Of a DNA stretch of 25,889 nt, positions 17,860 to 23,512 are shown piece after piece; the first letter of the stretch is position 1, and each line of letters opens with the position of its first letter. The stretch covers positions 1 to 25,889 of the forward strand of contig DATFEK010000076.1 of assembly GCA_035251305.1 (NCBI GenBank). The letters run 5' to 3'. Source of the stretch: Gaiellaceae bacterium (lineage in GTDB: Bacteria; Actinomycetota; Thermoleophilia; Gaiellales; Gaiellaceae). The position numbers and the translations under genes were made by a program. The notes beneath the pieces are model-generated. The model was not told the DNA's origin and did not search any database. It worked only from the letters and a program-made list of their open reading frames with translations.

Positions 17860-18777
17860 CTACTGTCGCGCCAACACCGTAGGTGGGCGCCAAAGCACGT
17901 ACGCAAGCGCGACGCTGAGCGCCCAGATCGTCGCCGCCAGGAAGACATGGACGAGCACGAGGCCCCAGGGCAACGCACTGCGGTACTGGACCTCGCCGAG
18001 CACCGCCTGCGCGATGAGCGCGGCGAGCAGGAAGCCCCAGATTCGCACGATGCCCGGATAGGTCCCACGTAGTCCGCGGAGGAACCAGCCGACGACCAGA
18101 ACCCCGATACCGAATGCTGCCGCCACTCGCACATGGACGTACACCGTCTCCGATATGGCGATGCCGAGACGCTCGACGTCTGCGCTCGAGCCCGGGTGTG
18201 GGCCCGAGGCAGTCGCGACTGCGCCCGTGACGACGAGCAGAGCGCACGCAGGGAGGCCGATCCAGCTCACGGCTCTGCGGAGCCAGAGCCCACCCGCGGG
18301 CGCAATGACACCTGACACGAGGAGCCACGCCTCGAGCGCGACGACCACGGCGAGCCCGACCACGGCGAGCCCGAGAAGGAAGTGCGTCATCACCGCCAGC
18401 GGGTGCAGGTCGAGCGCAATCGTGATTCCGCCCATCGGAATCTGAGCCGCGGCGACGAGAAAAGCGCCGAGCGCAGCCAGCCTGGCGGTGCGTGACAGCC
18501 CGTCCACTCTGCGCGATCCCAGCCATGTGACGAGCGTGAGCACGATGCCGACGAGCGCGATCAACCGGTTGCCGAACTCGACGAAGGCATGGAAGCCCTG
18601 CTCCGGGTACGGCTTGTCACCGCAGCTCGGCCAGTTTTCGCATCCGAGACCGGAGCCCGTGAGCCGGACGAAAGCTCCTGACGTGACGACGAGGAAGAGC
18701 GCGACGCACGACGAGACGGCCAAGCGGAGGAAGCCGCGCGCGGACATCGCGCGTGCACGAACGACTGCGATGCTCAC
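17860..18777 (-). CDS. ctaA: Heme A synthase (COX15/CtaA family)
   Basis: GAFVRLTGSGLGCENWPSC, VEFGNR and conserved His in TM helices (THFLLG, VHVR, VHVFLA). The GTG start overlaps the selD stop (GTGA). Confidence 0.88.
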   Translation of the reverse strand: MSIAVVRARAMSARGFLRLAVSSCVALFLVVTSGAFVRLTGSGLGCENWPSCGDKPYPEQGFHAFVEFGNRLIALVGIVLTLVTWLGSRRVDGLSRTARLAALGAFLVAAAQIPMGGITIALDLHPLAVMTHFLLGLAVVGLAVVVALEAWLLVSGVIAPAGGLWLRRAVSWIGLPACALLVVTGAVATASGPHPGSSADVERLGIAISETVYVHVRVAAAFGIGVLVVGWFLRGLRGTYPGIVRIWGFLLAALIAQAVLGEVQYRSALPWGLVLVHVFLAATIWALSVALAYVLWRPPTVLARQ

Positions 18778-19799
18778 GGCGCCAGAACGACACCCGCGCC
18801 GGCTTCGACGCGTCCGACCCGATGCAGCGGGAGGCCGGCGGCGGCCAGCGTCGCCTGGAGGACGTGAGCCCGCTCGCCGGGCACCGACGCGAGCAGGCCC
18901 CCGGCGGTCTGAGGGTCGTAAGCGAGTGCCTCGAGGGCGGGATCGGCCTCGCTTTCCACGTGCCCCGAGACGTACTCGCGGTTCCTGCGATCGCCGCCGG
19001 TTCGAGCGCCGGCCTGCGCGAGCTCGAGCGCTCCGGCGAGCAGCGGAATGGAGCCCGCATCGAGAATCGCGCGCACGCCGCTCCGCGATGCAAGCTCGTG
19101 CGTGTGCCCGACGAGCCCGAAGCCGGTGACGTCTGTCACTGCGTTGGGAGCGAACGGCCGTAGCGCATCGGCCGCCGCCTTGTTCGACTCGACCATCGAA
19201 TCGATCGCAGCATCGAGCGCCCCGGGCGGTGCCTCCCCGTCGCGCACCGCCTGCAGGACGATGCCGGTTCCCAGCGCCTTCGTCAGGAAGAGCACGTCTC
19301 CCGGCTCCGCGCGGGCTTTCGACCAGATCGCATCGGGATGCACCATGCCGACGACGGCGAGCCCGTACTTCGGCTCCTCGTCCCGAATCGTGTGGCCTCC
19401 CGCCAGAATCGCCCCGGCGGCGCGAACGCGCTCGTCTGCACCCGCGATGATTTCGCCGAGCACCTCCGTCGGAAGCTCCTCCGGAAACGCAGCGACGGAG
19501 AGCGCCAGTAGCGGGGCGCCCCCCATGGCGAAGACGTCGTTCAGGGCGTTCGTCGCCGCGATCGCGCCGAAGACACGGGGGTCGTCCACGAGCGGTGGAA
19601 AGAAGTCCACGGTGAAGACGATCGCGCGGTCGGCGTCGAGACGATAGACGGCAGCGTCGTCGGCGGGGTCGAGACCGACGAGGAGATCATCGGCCTCGGC
19701 GGGCACGAGCCCGGCGAGGAGGGTCTCGAGGCGGCCCGCCGCGTACTTGGCCGCGCATCCACCCGCACGCGCGAGCGATGTGAGCGGAACCGTTTCCAC
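18774..19799 (-). CDS. selD: Selenide, water dikinase (Cys form)
   Basis: Start at GTG 19799. GGCAAK (TGC codon, not TGA), DFFPP, NALNDVFAMGG, GGHT, TDVTGFGL and DPQTAGGLL motifs. -10 TACAGT lies 7 nt upstream. Confidence 0.92.
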   Translation of the reverse strand: METVPLTSLARAGGCAAKYAAGRLETLLAGLVPAEADDLLVGLDPADDAAVYRLDADRAIVFTVDFFPPLVDDPRVFGAIAATNALNDVFAMGGAPLLALSVAAFPEELPTEVLGEIIAGADERVRAAGAILAGGHTIRDEEPKYGLAVVGMVHPDAIWSKARAEPGDVLFLTKALGTGIVLQAVRDGEAPPGALDAAIDSMVESNKAAADALRPFAPNAVTDVTGFGLVGHTHELASRSGVRAILDAGSIPLLAGALELAQAGARTGGDRRNREYVSGHVESEADPALEALAYDPQTAGGLLASVPGERAHVLQATLAAAGLPLHRVGRVEAGAGVVLAP

Positions 19800-19832
19800 T
19801 CTCGGAACTGTAGGCGCCCGCGGCCGCGCAAA

Positions 19833-20050
19833 GGTCGCGCTTCCGGGTTGGCGCGACCGAAATCCGCACGTCAGCGCCCGCGCCGCGGGCACGTTTCGGG
19901 ATGTTGCGCGACCGGAGCCTTCACTCGCAGATTCCGGTCTTGCGCGCTGGGGAGGAGAGCCGCCGAGAGCAGCGAACTCCCGACCGGAGAGATCCGTCCC
20001 CATCTCCTCTCCCCCTGACGCAGCGGCCGCCGCCCCCTCGGCGGCCGCTG
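19833..20050. other. Densely structured intergenic region, candidate ncRNA or regulatory leader (family unassigned)
   Basis: Five abutting stem-loop modules, including a perfect 12-bp stem at 20021-20050 and an 8-bp stem at 19833-19858. No credible ORF. Confidence 0.35.
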
Positions 20051-20081
20051 ACTTTGGTGCTCCACTTAGACTCGCCTCAGT

Positions 20082-20762
20082 GTGAAGTCGGCGCTCGTCA
20101 CGGGGGGCTCTTCTGGGCTGGGGCTCGCCCTGGCACGGATGCTTCGCGCGGAGGGCTACGACCTGACGCTCGTCGCACGACGCCCTGAGCCGCTCGAGGA
20201 GGCGGCAGCCGAGCTCGGTGCGCTCGCCGTCGCCGCCAACCTCGCGGACGCCGACGAATGCACGCGCGCCGTCGCTGCACATGCCGAGCGGCACGGAGGC
20301 ATGAACGTCCTCGTGAACTCCGCCGGCCTCGGGATCATGAGCTCGTTCGCGGACCAGGACACGAAGCGGATCGGTCTTCAGCTCGACGTCAACCTGCGCG
20401 CGACGATGATCGTCACGCGTGAGGCGCTCCCCCTCCTACGGGCAGCGCACGGCCACGTGATCACGCTCGCGTCGATCGCCGGAATGATTCCGACCCCTGG
20501 TCTCGCCGTCTACGGCGCGACGAAGGCCGCGCTGATTTCACTCACCAGCTCGATCAATCGCGAAGAGGCCGAGTACGGCGTGCGTGCGACCACGATCTCC
20601 CCGGACTTCGTCGCGACGCGAATGACGGACTGGACCGGGCTCCGCGCCGAGGAGCAGATCCAGCCCGACGACATCGCAGCACTCGTTCGAACGGTGTTGT
20701 ACCTGAGCCCTCGAGCGCGCATTCCGAACATCGTCGTCGAGCTCTTGCGCGACGGCGTCTGA
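20082..20762 (+). CDS. SDR family NAD(P)-dependent oxidoreductase
   Basis: TGGSSGLG, VNSAG and YGATK motifs. -10 TAGACT at 20067-20072. Confidence 0.9.
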   Translation: MKSALVTGGSSGLGLALARMLRAEGYDLTLVARRPEPLEEAAAELGALAVAANLADADECTRAVAAHAERHGGMNVLVNSAGLGIMSSFADQDTKRIGLQLDVNLRATMIVTREALPLLRAAHGHVITLASIAGMIPTPGLAVYGATKAALISLTSSINREEAEYGVRATTISPDFVATRMTDWTGLRAEEQIQPDDIAALVRTVLYLSPRARIPNIVVELLRDGV

Positions 20763-20778: not shown

Positions 20779-21702
20779 TCAACCGCCGAGCTGAGCCCGC
20801 ACCGCGGCCTCGAGCTCGTTCACCGAGACCACGCCTTCGTACCGCTCGACGATCTTGCCGTCGGTCCCGACGAGGAACGTCCAGGGCTCGGTCTCGAGGC
20901 GCCACTCCCGCATCCAGCGGTTGAAACCCTTCGCCGGGTCGTTCCCCTCGTATACCTCGACGTGGATGAAACGCGTCTCCCCGCCCTCGAACCGGCTCGC
21001 GACCTCCTCGACGACGTCGACCACCGGACCGCACGTACGGCTGGAGCAGAACTTCGGCGTCGAGAACGTAACGACGAACGGCGCTTTCGATCGCAGCGAG
21101 TCGGCGATCGAATGCTCGAGCAGCGACTCGTCGGGCGGCGTGCGGGTCGTGAGCCTCGAGAAGACTCCGCGCGTGGAGGCGATCGTGGGCGTGTCCGACG
21201 CGATCGCGGGGTCGCCGATGTCCGGCGCGGAATCACTCTCGGCCACGACCACGTTTCCGAGCGCCTGCACCGCCGTGGCGCCTCCCTCCGGCTCAGCGAG
21301 CAGCCAGTAGGTGCCCGGGCGGGGAAGCCGAAGGCGAGCGACATAGATATGACTGGCGTCGGCCATGTCGCCTCCGGGCACGCCAATTCGCTCGAGCTTC
21401 GCGTTCGACTCGAGGAATGGAGGAGCATCGAGCCGGTCTGCGACCCACACACGCGCGCTCGGAAGCGTGACCACACGCTCCTCCGCGTCGATGACGAGGA
21501 AGGAGACTCGGACGTTCCCGGGCTCGTGACTCGCAGTCCCCGGGACGATCGCGACGTCGTCGCCCGGCGCTCGCCAGAGCTCCTCGAGCGTCTTGCCCCC
21601 TCCGGGGTCAGCCGCCGTGGTCGTCGTCTCCTCGCTCGATCCGCCACAACCGACGAGGAGCAACGATGACAGCACCACGGTCAGAGCCGCAACTGGGCGC
21701 AT
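20779..21702 (-). CDS. Thioredoxin-like fold lipoprotein
   Basis: Lipobox LLVG-C and a C-terminal thioredoxin-like region VVTFSTPKFCSSRTCGPVV...FIHVEVY...EPWTFLVG (CxxxxC). -10 TACACT at 21712-21717. Confidence 0.7.
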   Translation of the reverse strand: MRPVAALTVVLSSLLLVGCGGSSEETTTTAADPGGGKTLEELWRAPGDDVAIVPGTASHEPGNVRVSFLVIDAEERVVTLPSARVWVADRLDAPPFLESNAKLERIGVPGGDMADASHIYVARLRLPRPGTYWLLAEPEGGATAVQALGNVVVAESDSAPDIGDPAIASDTPTIASTRGVFSRLTTRTPPDESLLEHSIADSLRSKAPFVVTFSTPKFCSSRTCGPVVDVVEEVASRFEGGETRFIHVEVYEGNDPAKGFNRWMREWRLETEPWTFLVGTDGKIVERYEGVVSVNELEAAVRAQLGG

Positions 21703-21729
21703 ACGCGCCCGAGTGTAGCCTCGCCTCGG

Positions 21730-21822
21730 TTAGTGGCCCTCGGGCCAGGAGCCCTTGGCCTTGCTCAGCAAGGCAGCCAGCAGCGCAAGGTTGACCAGCA
21801 GCAGCAGAAGTCTCGGCTTCAC
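21730..21822 (-). CDS. Unannotated 30-aa secreted propeptide MKPRLLLLLVNLALLAALLSKAKGSWPEGH (putative RRNPP-type signalling peptide precursor)
   Basis: Read manually: GTG at 21822 to TAA at 21730, with a GAGGAGGT RBS at 21827-21834. Basic n-region, 15-residue hydrophobic h-region and short polar tail. Lies 13 nt downstream of the HTH-TPR regulator stop. Confidence 0.8.
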   Translation of the reverse strand: MKPRLLLLLVNLALLAALLSKAKGSWPEGH

Positions 21823-21835
21823 GGCGACCTCCTCT

Positions 21836-23176
21836 CTAGAAGCGGATTTCCTGGAGCGCCTCGGCGGCGTTCCGGTAGAGACGTGCGGCCTCGTGCTCGT
21901 CTCCACGACGAGCTGCGAGATCCCCTAGTGCAACCCACGCCTCCGTCCGGTGGCTGATCGACGCCATTTGTTCCGCAGCGGCGTCAGCCATCCGGAAGCA
22001 TTCTCCCGCCTCATCCAGCCGTCCGCGCTCCAGCAGAGCTCGTCCCAGTACGAGCTGCGACGGACAGACTTCGTGGAGGTAATCCTCGCGACCCTGCAGA
22101 AGCTCGAGTGACTCACGCGCGAGCGCGTCGGCATGGTCGTATTCGCCACGGTTCAAGTGCACCTTGGCGAGCCCTTCGAGCGCCTGTGCGGCATCCGCGG
22201 GGGAATCGGCATCGAGCGCCCGCGAGTACGACGCCTTCAAGTGCTCGACGGCATGCTCCTCGTCTCCCAGGAGGAGCGTCAGCCCGCCGAGCATCAATAG
22301 CAGCCGTCCGACGTTTCGCTCGTCGTTCAGCTCCTGGTACAGCTCCTTGGCCCGCTGCGCGTAGTTGCGGGAGCGGATGTAGTGCCCCTGCCGCTGAGCG
22401 GTCAGCGATGCCTGAAAGTACGTGTTGGCGATGGCGCGGCGATCGCCGAGTCCCTCGGCGAGCTCGAGCGCGCGCTCGACGTCTTCGCGCGCCGCAACGT
22501 AATCACGCTGGCGGCGATAGCACCGGGAGCGCCAACCGAGGATGTCCGACCGGAGGAGATCGCACGGAAGATCTGAGCGCTCCGCGAGCTCGAGCGCCTC
22601 GTCGAAGAGGGCAATCGCGGTCGAGATGCTGGAAAGGCTCCATCTGCACGCTCCGAGGCGGCACAGCACCTCCGCTCGGTCGACATCGGAGAACTCGGGA
22701 CGCTCCGCGATCTCACGGGCACGCTGCAGGAGATCGACGGCGCGGCCGACGCCGCCGGACTGCTGAAGCGCCCACGCCTCGCCGACCAGCGACCGAAGCT
22801 CCAGAGAGGACGCGTCTGTTCCAAGCACGTTCGGACGCACCTCACGAAACGCAGCGATCGCCTCTTCGTAGCGATGCGCCTCGGAAAGAGCTTCTGCGCG
22901 CGTCAATATCGCCTCGACCTTCGCGCGCTCGTCAGCCGAGACACCGGCGCTGATGAACGCCGGGTCGACGCGAAGCCGCTCGGCGAGCCAAGCGATGGTC
23001 GCCGGAGTCGGGCGGGTCTTGCCGCGCTCGATCTGGCTGATGTACTCCTTCGAGAAGCGATCGCCGGCGAGCTCGGTCTGCGTGAGACCGGCCGAGACGC
23101 GAAGAGCACGAACGCGAGCCCCCAGGCGTGAGCCGGCAGCGGTGCCAGACAGAATGGCGGTCTCGATCATGCTCAT
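21836..23176 (-). CDS. XRE-family HTH + tetratricopeptide-repeat transcriptional regulator (NprR/PlcR-like architecture)
   Basis: N-terminal LGARVRALRVSAGLTQTELAGDRFSKEYISQIERGKTRPT (HTH_3), followed by ~350 aa of ~40-residue helical repeats (AIAAF/AVDLL/AIALF...A/ALEL pattern). An alternative start is ATG 23170. Confidence 0.88.
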   Translation of the reverse strand: MSMIETAILSGTAAGSRLGARVRALRVSAGLTQTELAGDRFSKEYISQIERGKTRPTPATIAWLAERLRVDPAFISAGVSADERAKVEAILTRAEALSEAHRYEEAIAAFREVRPNVLGTDASSLELRSLVGEAWALQQSGGVGRAVDLLQRAREIAERPEFSDVDRAEVLCRLGACRWSLSSISTAIALFDEALELAERSDLPCDLLRSDILGWRSRCYRRQRDYVAAREDVERALELAEGLGDRRAIANTYFQASLTAQRQGHYIRSRNYAQRAKELYQELNDERNVGRLLLMLGGLTLLLGDEEHAVEHLKASYSRALDADSPADAAQALEGLAKVHLNRGEYDHADALARESLELLQGREDYLHEVCPSQLVLGRALLERGRLDEAGECFRMADAAAEQMASISHRTEAWVALGDLAARRGDEHEAARLYRNAAEALQEIRF

Positions 23177-23280
23177 TTCAGTGAACCCGGTTCTGGCTCG
23201 CCGCGCTCCCCCTGAGGGGGGATGTGTGGCTACCCTTTTCGAGTGAAGTAACGGTAGCGGAAATCACTTGACCAAGCTAC

Positions 23281-23309
23281 TTGACTTTTCTGGACACGGC
23301 TCCTATAGT
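23281..23309 (+). promoter_or_regulatory. Near-consensus sigma70/SigA-type promoter
   Basis: TTGACT (23281-23286), a 17-nt spacer, then TATAGT (23304-23309). Both hexamers match consensus at 5/6 within an AT-richer patch. Confidence 0.75.
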
Positions 23310-23315
23310 CAGGCC

Positions 23316-23486
23316 CACACCGCAAGCGATCGGACGCCAGATCGGTTGCGCGGGCACCACCGCCGGATCCGCCGGCGTGCAGGAAGAGCGTGGCTGGGCC
23401 GCAGAGCCACGAATTCCGGCTCGCCGCCCCGGGAAGGGGTCGCCTCGAACGGAGAACGCCCCCGGAGCCGCAGCCGGGGGCGTTTT
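23316..23486 (+). ncRNA. Candidate ~170-nt small RNA divergent from the HTH-TPR regulator
   Basis: Bounded by the promoter and a hairpin+TTTT terminator. Four internal hairpins and no complete ORF inside. Inferred, with no family match recognised. Confidence 0.5.
23455..23486. terminator. Intrinsic terminator, probably bidirectional (sRNA + strand; MFS - strand)
   Basis: AACGCCCCCGG-agccgcag-CCGGGGGCGTT followed by TT on the + strand (TTTT at 23483-23486) and TTCTC on the - strand. Confidence 0.7.
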
Positions 23487-23512
23487 CACGTTCTGGACGG
23501 CAAACCTGCGAG

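Follow-up and report, generated by a model that had tools for sequence, protein, structure and literature searches.

A candidate RRNPP-like receptor and peptide module with a likely small RNA output in the Gaiellaceae

The stretch of DNA analysed here, referred to as the window, comprises 25,889 nt (forward strand, positions 1-25,889 of contig DATFEK010000076.1) from the assembly GCA_035251305.1 of a Gaiellaceae bacterium. The Gaiellales, to which it belongs, are an abundant uncultured soil lineage of the Actinomycetota. Our subject is a pair of genes in this window, one for a regulator with an XRE-type helix-turn-helix (HTH) and about nine tetratricopeptide repeats (TPRs) and the other, directly behind it, a small open reading frame (ORF) for a peptide of 30 residues ending in S-W-P-E-G-H. 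The reading that we favour, with a confidence that stays just short of even, is that the two form an RRNPP-like receptor-peptide signalling module, the output of which is a small RNA (sRNA) encoded divergently from the regulator. In its more specific version, the Gaiellales may possess a core, vertically inherited circuit of the Firmicutes style in which the hexapeptide of a mini-propeptide is read via arginine 221 (R221) of the receptor and switches the sRNA; to this fuller statement we give slightly less credence.

According to this reading, the pre-peptide would be inserted or exported with its N-terminus inside and its C-terminus outside, and a short C-terminal part containing S-W-P-E-G-H would be released, the family consensus of the released unit being [STG]-aromatic-x-[DE]-G-x. 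The peptide would build up outside the cell, would be taken up again via one of several oligopeptide ABC importers and would lodge in the concave groove of the nine-TPR domain, where its Asp or Glu would pair with R221. Binding would alter the action of the HTH at the genome's single GTCAAGT-N6-GTCAAGT site, which overlaps the divergent sRNA promoter, and the sRNA of about 175 nt would be the output.

If true, the module would represent the first gene-encoded peptide quorum-sensing family outside the Bacillota and would extend peptide communication through cytoplasmic TPR receptors to a second phylum (51/52 plus 79/80 genomes). The RRNPPA family has been described as one of the Bacillota and their mobile elements, for which an outgroup is wanted for rooting (PMC12700828), and the module would then be a candidate outgroup for the unresolved RRNPPA root, five versus nine TPRs (PMC12700828). 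Consisting of a hexapeptide, a single receptor, a single DNA site and a single sRNA, it would also offer a simple, testable handle on organisms that have barely been cultivated. If the peptide acts but never exits the cell, the pair would instead represent a novel way for a micro-protein to partner a TPR regulator.

The regulator gene and the small gene behind it

An earlier note, made from the letters of the DNA alone, had described the regulator as a protein of 446 amino acids with an XRE-type HTH followed by TPRs, and the ORF list and Pfam agree with this description and its coordinates. Pfam assigns HTH_31 to residues 17-73 (E 1.8e-12; HTH_3 also matched) and TPR_12 (E 2.3e-25), TPR_MalT (E 1.2e-16) and TPR_2 to the rest of the protein. 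Among 69 homologues, the HTH is the most conserved part, with invariant R21, R26, Q33, K43, Y45, S47, Q48 and E50. In the AlphaFold2 model calculated with the alignment of these homologues (mean predicted local distance difference test, pLDDT, 92.3), the HTH leads via a linker helix into nine to ten helix pairs, and the whole is an all-helical, soluble superhelix without signal or membrane segment.

The regulator gene ends with a TAG codon (21836-21838) and the small ORF starts 13 nt after it with no terminator between the two, so that both are probably co-transcribed. This arrangement, together with the ribosome-binding site and the product of 30 residues, had been read correctly to the base in the earlier note. 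The product, MKPRLLLLLVNLALLAALLSKAKGSWPEGH, consists of a basic N-terminus (MKPR), a hydrophobic segment of 16 residues and a short tail, and cleavage between A-K-G and S or between S-K-A and K would be permitted by the -3/-1 rule. A GGAGGT(C/G) element also precedes the small ORF in related loci. The earlier note had called the ORF unlisted, which is true of this window, whereas exact copies of homologous peptides are annotated elsewhere in public metagenome-assembled genomes (MAGs); an exact look-up of these peptides in public annotations returned only the name 'hypothetical protein', and searches of Pfam and NCBIfam with the peptide returned no family.

For the analysis of conservation, relatives of the same genus were compared, with 18 intact genus copies used at the codon level, and 80 further species-level Gaiellaceae genomes were fetched independently. 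The regulator is present in all 24 same-genus genomes (24/24, 74-98% identity), and in a class-level search an ortholog was found in 51/52 sampled genomes of the family. The small ORF lies directly after it in about 20/22 genus loci and in almost every locus of the family; of the 80 further species, 79 have it, and 77 of these 79 copies end with [STG]-[WFM]-x-[DE]-G plus 0-4 more residues. The homologous peptides comprise 28-68 amino acids and are always encoded next to the receptor. In the orthologous locus, the order of major facilitator superfamily (MFS) transporter, regulator, peptide and, often, lipoprotein is kept across the family. The earlier note had proposed to look behind homologous regulators for small ORFs that share a C-terminal motif, and these are indeed present, with a tail that varies by receptor clade.

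Within the genus, the consensus of the peptide is MKPRLLLLLVNLALLAAWLG, followed by 4-9 variable residues and then S-W-[PS]-[DE]-G-x, that is, a hypervariable spacer precedes a nearly invariant tail motif. In the 18 intact genus copies, variation occurs at the third position in 4/5 of the motif codons, at the second in 0/5 and at the first in 1/5, and synonymous codon differences exceed non-synonymous ones. Purifying selection on the peptide, the absence of which the earlier note had named as a refutation, is thus visible as third-position wobble with the motif kept. Judged by these codon and conservation patterns, the small ORF is a real gene under purifying selection and tied to the regulator. 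Single-base frameshifts interrupt it in three MAG loci (L005, identical with L090; L010; and L022), one of them, L022, also having its regulator in two pieces; these copies are either assembly errors or decaying.

Contigs from four soil or rhizosphere RNA libraries, matched at an identity of at least 90% and liable to contain DNA and to include relatives, include sequence from the regulator and, in records of 174 and 190 nt, from the sRNA region (23285-23484). A further record of 181 nt covers 21695-21865, that is, the small ORF and 30 nt of the regulator gene, one base short of the criterion for bridging the two. These records lend weak support to transcription of the regulator, the small ORF and the sRNA. 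As regards possible re-uptake, each genome holds 5-11 SBP_bac_5 genes, which encode binding proteins of oligopeptide ABC importers; such genes are common in bacteria and do not discriminate between the readings discussed below.

Paralogous pairs, tandem units and residue 221

The association of a TPR protein with a small gene recurs outside the orthologous locus. Regulator paralogues of about 50% identity are accompanied in 13/13 loci by a convergent gene of 32 codons, MFTKGNTRYIVVSLTALAGILASLGGGWFDGS, with the tail GWF[DE]G[SR], and the homologues of family f5 (44-47% identity) by a gene of 36 codons ending in RGFHEW; a search beside the homologues of family f8 (32-34% identity) turned up no small ORF of this kind. 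Other receptor clades have the tails GFPDGP, GHFDGH, GFFDGH, GMSDGG, DGFSDGR and SWFDGH. Even TPR paralogues of about 390 residues that lack the HTH, in which Pfam recognizes only TPRs, still possess a small ORF, which ends in GFS[SKR]G. In a maximum-likelihood tree of 59 receptors there is one tail type per receptor clade, and several genomes hold two to three different receptor-peptide pairs. The hydrophobic segments differ wholly between receptor clades and the tail unit is the common element, while the genes for the MFS transporter and the lipoprotein are absent from all paralogous loci. Since adjacency persists where the orientation has changed and where the HTH has been lost, the relationship between protein and peptide would go beyond co-transcription, and the pattern points to a peptide gene that is linked to the TPR domain and not to the neighbourhood. 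The members of the HTH-less group (L078-L081, P0131, P0143, P0152, P0156 and P0186) are a Rap-like counterpart to the HTH-bearing receptors.

Apart from two versions of 11 and 15 codons, all pre-peptides begin with Lys or Arg, after which a hydrophobic stretch follows. An N-in, C-out orientation would result from the positive-inside rule, because the N-terminus is basic and the tail acidic. In other genera, canonical AxA signal peptides precede a pro-region, such as MKKTRLIFLLCALTAAAWSLPGLAQA followed by KNP…, …VVAVPSYA followed by GFG… and …GVGNAIA followed by APKNP…; signal peptides of this kind were seen in the homologues L046, L048, L076, L142 and L160. Some propeptides contain the unit in tandem. 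S[MA]FDGG occurs in three copies in L046 and L142 and in five in L160, and GMHDGHDF occurs in three copies in L048. Tandem copies of the mature pheromone within a secreted propeptide have been documented for Rap-Phr (PMC11343458), and in the Gaiellaceae they are the strongest indication that the short unit may be a discrete released product. The number of copies of these six- to eight-residue units differs between the species concerned (L046, L048, L142 and L160).

A contact between tail and receptor is suggested by covariation. Receptors paired with Asp/Glu-tail peptides were compared column by column with receptors paired with non-acidic tails, the acidic position being the third position of the unit in our numbering, and residue 221 emerged as the single column standing out. 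It is Arg in all of the approximately 150 acid-tail pairs examined, a raw count that is inflated by relatedness. Gln takes its place in basal branches, namely in L057 and L060, with the tails GFRRGG and GFHRGG, and in the HTH-less clade, with GFS[SKR]G. A young GHF[DG]G clade, independent of these branches, contains nine species with GHFDG[HRNS] and R221 and six with GHFGGR and Q221. Gln221 thus occurs only where the peptide lacks an acidic residue, in two, perhaps three, independent events. This is the order expected of a compensatory contact change, because Gln221 appears only after the acidic residue has been lost, and it is suggestive of a contact between R221 and the Asp or Glu of the peptide. 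In the register of the Pfam TPR_2 alignment (212-241), R221 would occupy position 12 of helix A in the TPR at 210-243 and would, by the usual TPR geometry, face the groove. R275 was considered as a second covarying site and dropped, as it is replaced by Gln in several acid-tail pairs too. The earlier note had instead pointed to Asn residues of the TPR region as resembling those that grip peptide backbones in RRNPP receptors; this argument proved weak, with N251 present in 20/69 and N288 in 36/69 sequences and both therefore poorly conserved, and a conserved Asn pair of the family at 294-295 is Leu-Met in this protein and in its genus.

When the regulator model was compared with known structures, the top matches by Z-score included apo NprR (5dbk_A, 353/355 residues aligned) and the peptide-bound Rap-phi3T, RapF and RapJ. 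The similarity to NprR and Rap expected by the earlier note is accordingly high, but no higher than that to unrelated TPR superhelices. Ranking by Foldseek E-value was set aside as a functional guide, since it is dominated by consensus-TPR and LGN proteins and is uninformative. A predicted complex of the regulator (with alignment) and KAKGSWPEGH, residues 21-30 of the peptide, reached a score of 0.22, below a mark of 0.32, in a calculation without control runs, and so speaks neither for nor against binding. Within the signalling module, we regard it as more probable than not that the tail is the ligand of the TPR domain.

The upstream repeat, the divergent promoter and the small RNA

In the 336 bp upstream of the regulator, conservation exceeds that of the coding sequence. 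This region contains two direct copies of ACTTGAC, the second of which overlaps the -35 box of a divergent promoter; at 23243-23249 there is also an imperfect copy in inverted orientation, GTGAAGT. Nearly all orthologous loci have the 7-mer upstream of the regulator, as do the f5 and f8 homologues (32-47% identity), and it is nearly absent from the remainder of each 4.3-kb locus. Read on the minus strand and with at most one mismatch, GTCAAGT-N6-GTCAAGT occurs once per genome in 5/5 genomes, in each case in the interval that separates regulator and sRNA; the pattern reversed as a control gave 0 matches. We infer that the regulator binds the ACTTGAC repeats and controls the sRNA; if so, the circuit would have a single dedicated output, as in arbitrium.

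The divergent promoter is near consensus, and an equivalent is present in 79/80 of the further loci. Behind it lies the region of the structured sRNA, for which an alignment of 24 species reveals compensatory changes at 13/27 predicted pairs and in which the loops GACGCCAG and GGCUGGGCCGCAGAGCC are invariant. Rfam contains no family that matches the window at the gathering threshold, and the sRNA region yielded chance-level matches only. The sRNA is likely to be the output of the module. For the regulator itself, no promoter with a recognizable -10 box could be assigned in 23177-23265. The coordinates of all these elements are collected in Table 1.

Table 1. Elements of the candidate receptor-peptide-sRNA module in the window
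Feature	Position	Strand	Remarks
Regulator gene, 446 aa	21836-23176	-	ORF list; XRE-type HTH and ~nine TPRs
HTH DNA-binding domain, residues 17-73	22958-23128	-	Pfam HTH_31
TPR domain, residues ~81-446, presumed peptide-binding module	21839-22936	-	Contains R221 (codon 22514-22516)
Shine-Dalgarno AGAGGAGGT (contains GGAGG)	21827-21835	-	Read from sequence; directly after regulator stop, four bases before GTG
Small ORF, 30 codons and stop	21730-21822	-	GTG start 21820-21822, TAA stop 21730-21732
Codons of C-terminal unit S-W-P-E-G-H, presumed signal unit	21733-21750	-	[STG]-[WFM]-x-[DE]-G-x motif
ACTTGAC direct copies, candidate operator	23266-23272, 23279-23285	+	Conserved upstream of regulator across family
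Near-consensus promoter TTGACT-N17-TATAGT	23281-23309	+	Divergent from regulator; read from sequence
Structured sRNA, ~175 nt, strong intrinsic terminator	23316-23490	+	Conserved; compensatory pairs

Competing readings, known systems and flanking genes

Several observations weigh against a signalling module. The locus is core, vertically inherited and slowly evolving (51/52 family genomes), unlike RRNPP systems, which are mostly accessory and diverge fast, and the near-invariance of the tail within the genus leaves no room for strain-private signals. The covariation at residue 221 is not strict, three further species with GHFGGR still having R221, and the basal branches with Gln221 may go back to one event. 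By Z-score, APC subunits and APPBP2, a binder of C-terminal degrons, tie with NprR and Rap. Co-duplication of neighbouring genes would on its own yield much of the pattern seen among the paralogues. At two loci, in two genera, ORFs of 15 codons (MKARQILHRGWTDGH, L044:2823-2867) and 11 codons (MVVMAYSDGPK, L059:1447-1479) keep the tail motif and have no hydrophobic segment; they may be decayed copies or leaderless peptides, and leaderless peptides have been named as a possibility for some RRNPPA clades (PMC12700828). Finally, the hydrophobic segment in this genus reaches nearly to the motif without a typical c-region, and as LLLLLVNLALLAAWLG with its invariant Asn it is far more conserved than a plain signal peptide requires, which fits a membrane-resident micro-protein.

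These last features lead to the alternative that survives best, namely that the small protein is a partner of the regulator without any cell-to-cell signalling, either as a single-pass membrane micro-protein or acting inside the cell. Its effect on the TPR regulator would be local, such as conveying the state of the membrane or of export, tethering or titration, and would involve neither release nor re-import. The polar Asn in the middle of the conserved genus segment and the missing clear signal-peptidase c-region would be natural for such a protein, as would versions that do without a hydrophobic segment (MKARQILHRGWTDGH and MVVMAYSDGPK), a core, vertically inherited locus and a tail that offers no pherotype diversity within the genus. 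What such a partner does not readily accommodate is topology: with Lys or Arg at the N-terminus and a mostly acidic tail, the positive-inside rule would place the tail outside, whereas the regulator is soluble and cytoplasmic. Furthermore, the AxA signal peptides, long pro-regions and three to five tandem motifs of other homologues resemble secreted, processed precursors, and the hydrophobic segments are fully different between clades that share the tail unit. On balance, we consider a partner of this kind unlikely.

A second alternative is that the peptide is not the ligand of the regulator but its output, an exported or membrane peptide with a metal-binding, antimicrobial or envelope role, and that the TPR domain responds to a different cue. 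In its favour, His, Asp and Trp abound in the tails (SWPDGH, the GMHDGHDF repeats, HVHHHRGGRGFHEW), the orthologous locus places the pair beside an MFS transporter and a thioredoxin-fold lipoprotein that has a CxxxxC motif, adjacency could be explained by co-transcription alone, and ComR, an RRNPP receptor, is reported to be able to respond to non-peptide metabolites (PMC12998947). Against this stand the HTH-less TPR paralogues, which are unable to regulate transcription and yet keep the adjacent peptide gene, and the convergent paralogues of 50% identity, in which co-transcription is broken and adjacency is kept. In addition, the lipoprotein and MFS genes do not accompany any of the paralogous pairs, and the covariation of R221 with the acidic residue is hard to explain without contact. 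We regard this alternative as rather improbable. The possibility that the small ORF arose as an open frame by chance, or serves only in cis, and has no functional product, as the abundance of short ORFs in a GC-rich window and the three broken MAG copies might suggest, is refuted for practical purposes by the third-position wobble and the conservation in 79/80 species, the more so as a strong, correctly spaced Shine-Dalgarno sequence is present in every locus and the amino-acid motif is kept across paralogues with unrelated nucleotide sequences.

How does the RRNPP-like module that we favour compare with characterized systems? The published RRNPP signature comprises an adjacent propeptide of 10-100 amino acids, its export and a cytoplasmic TPR receptor of 250-500 amino acids (PMC10075063); the 30-residue propeptide beside the receptor and the 446-residue TPR receptor itself fall within both size ranges. 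The survey concerned covered Firmicutes and viruses only, and Actinomycetota are said there to signal typically with small molecules (PMC10075063). In the published literature on RRNPP in Actinobacteria/Actinomycetota and on quorum sensing in Gaiellales, we found no such system. The earlier note's claim of a chromosomal peptide-communication system is sustained in its conserved receptor-then-propeptide layout and in the testable parts of this signature, but the step of cell-to-cell signalling stays putative.

In domain architecture, NprR-NprX of the Bacillus cereus group comes closest, with an XRE-type HTH and about nine TPRs (446 residues here versus about 420) and a peptide gene directly downstream on the same strand, as here. 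Sequence identity is only about 10-11%, without a specific sequence-family match, and the host of NprR-NprX belongs to the Bacillota instead of the Actinomycetota. Moreover, the locus in Gaiellaceae is core and syntenic across the family, its likely target is a divergent sRNA and not a protease gene, and its pre-peptide of 30 residues has almost no pro-region. NprX contains an internal heptapeptide.

In the logic of its three parts, receptor, peptide gene and regulatory RNA, the module is nearest to arbitrium, AimR-AimP-aimX of SPbeta-like Bacillus phages. Common to both are an HTH-TPR receptor, a small peptide gene directly downstream of it and, here as a candidate, a single DNA site controlling a non-coding RNA, as well as a unit of six residues with Gly at position 5. 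The module in Gaiellaceae differs in being chromosomal and vertically inherited, with conserved synteny and no phage genes nearby, so that it is not phage-encoded; its sRNA is divergent and upstream of the receptor and not downstream of the peptide gene; and most tails have Asp where AimP has Arg. The tails GFRRGG, GFHRGG and GFSKGA of basal clades presumably resemble arbitrium peptides of the xxxRGA type, which we treat as a lead only.

Rap-Phr of Bacillus combines TPR-only receptors with a Sec-exported Phr that carries a C-terminal penta- or hexapeptide. Likeness to it lies in the HTH-less TPR paralogues, each of which has a peptide gene downstream, and in the tandem C-terminal units of some propeptides, which Phr shares (PMC11343458). 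The regulator studied here, however, has an HTH and gives no sign of a phosphatase or anti-activator role, and the resemblance is one of generic TPRs only (RapJ E 1.7e-11, below LGN and kinesin light chain). The streptococcal Rgg-SHP and ComR-ComS systems share with it a very short pre-peptide with basic N-terminus, hydrophobic stretch and the active part at the extreme C-terminus, a peptide gene that is convergent or co-directional with the receptor and the lack of a classical signal-peptidase site (PMC10075063), whereas Rgg and ComR have five degenerate TPRs in about 285-300 residues compared with nine regular TPRs here. Overall, the module appears unlike typical RRNPP systems in four ways, that is, in its core and slowly evolving locus, its near-invariant genus tail, its constrained hydrophobic segment and its probable sRNA output.

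The genetic environment is that of a bacterial chromosome. The regulator-peptide pair has an MFS transporter gene upstream and the gene for the thioredoxin-fold lipoprotein downstream, and further away lie genes for SDR, SelD-like, CtaA, PAC2, helicase, FadB-like and IF-1 proteins and for pyruvate:ferredoxin oxidoreductase. All neighbours are housekeeping genes, and the statement that no phage or plasmid genes flank the pair was right. The lipoprotein (20779-21702, minus strand) has a signal sequence, an LVGC lipobox, a weak match to Thioredoxin_2 (residues 206-300) and an FCSSRTCGP motif; it is encoded downstream of the pair in the orthologous locus only, with the CtaA and SelD-like genes close by. 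Directly after the small ORF, a conserved GGCTACACTCGGGCG is present at 21700-21729 (minus strand). Because a -10-like TACACT box (21712-21717) is situated 9 nt ahead of the lipoprotein ATG (21702), the sequence suggests separate transcription of this gene from a promoter of its own, with an mRNA that is leaderless or nearly so. Ahead of its conserved domain, the SelD-like ORF (AIRS/AIRS_C; 18774-20294, minus strand) leaves room for an extension of about 160 codons, which would run through a hairpin-rich region.

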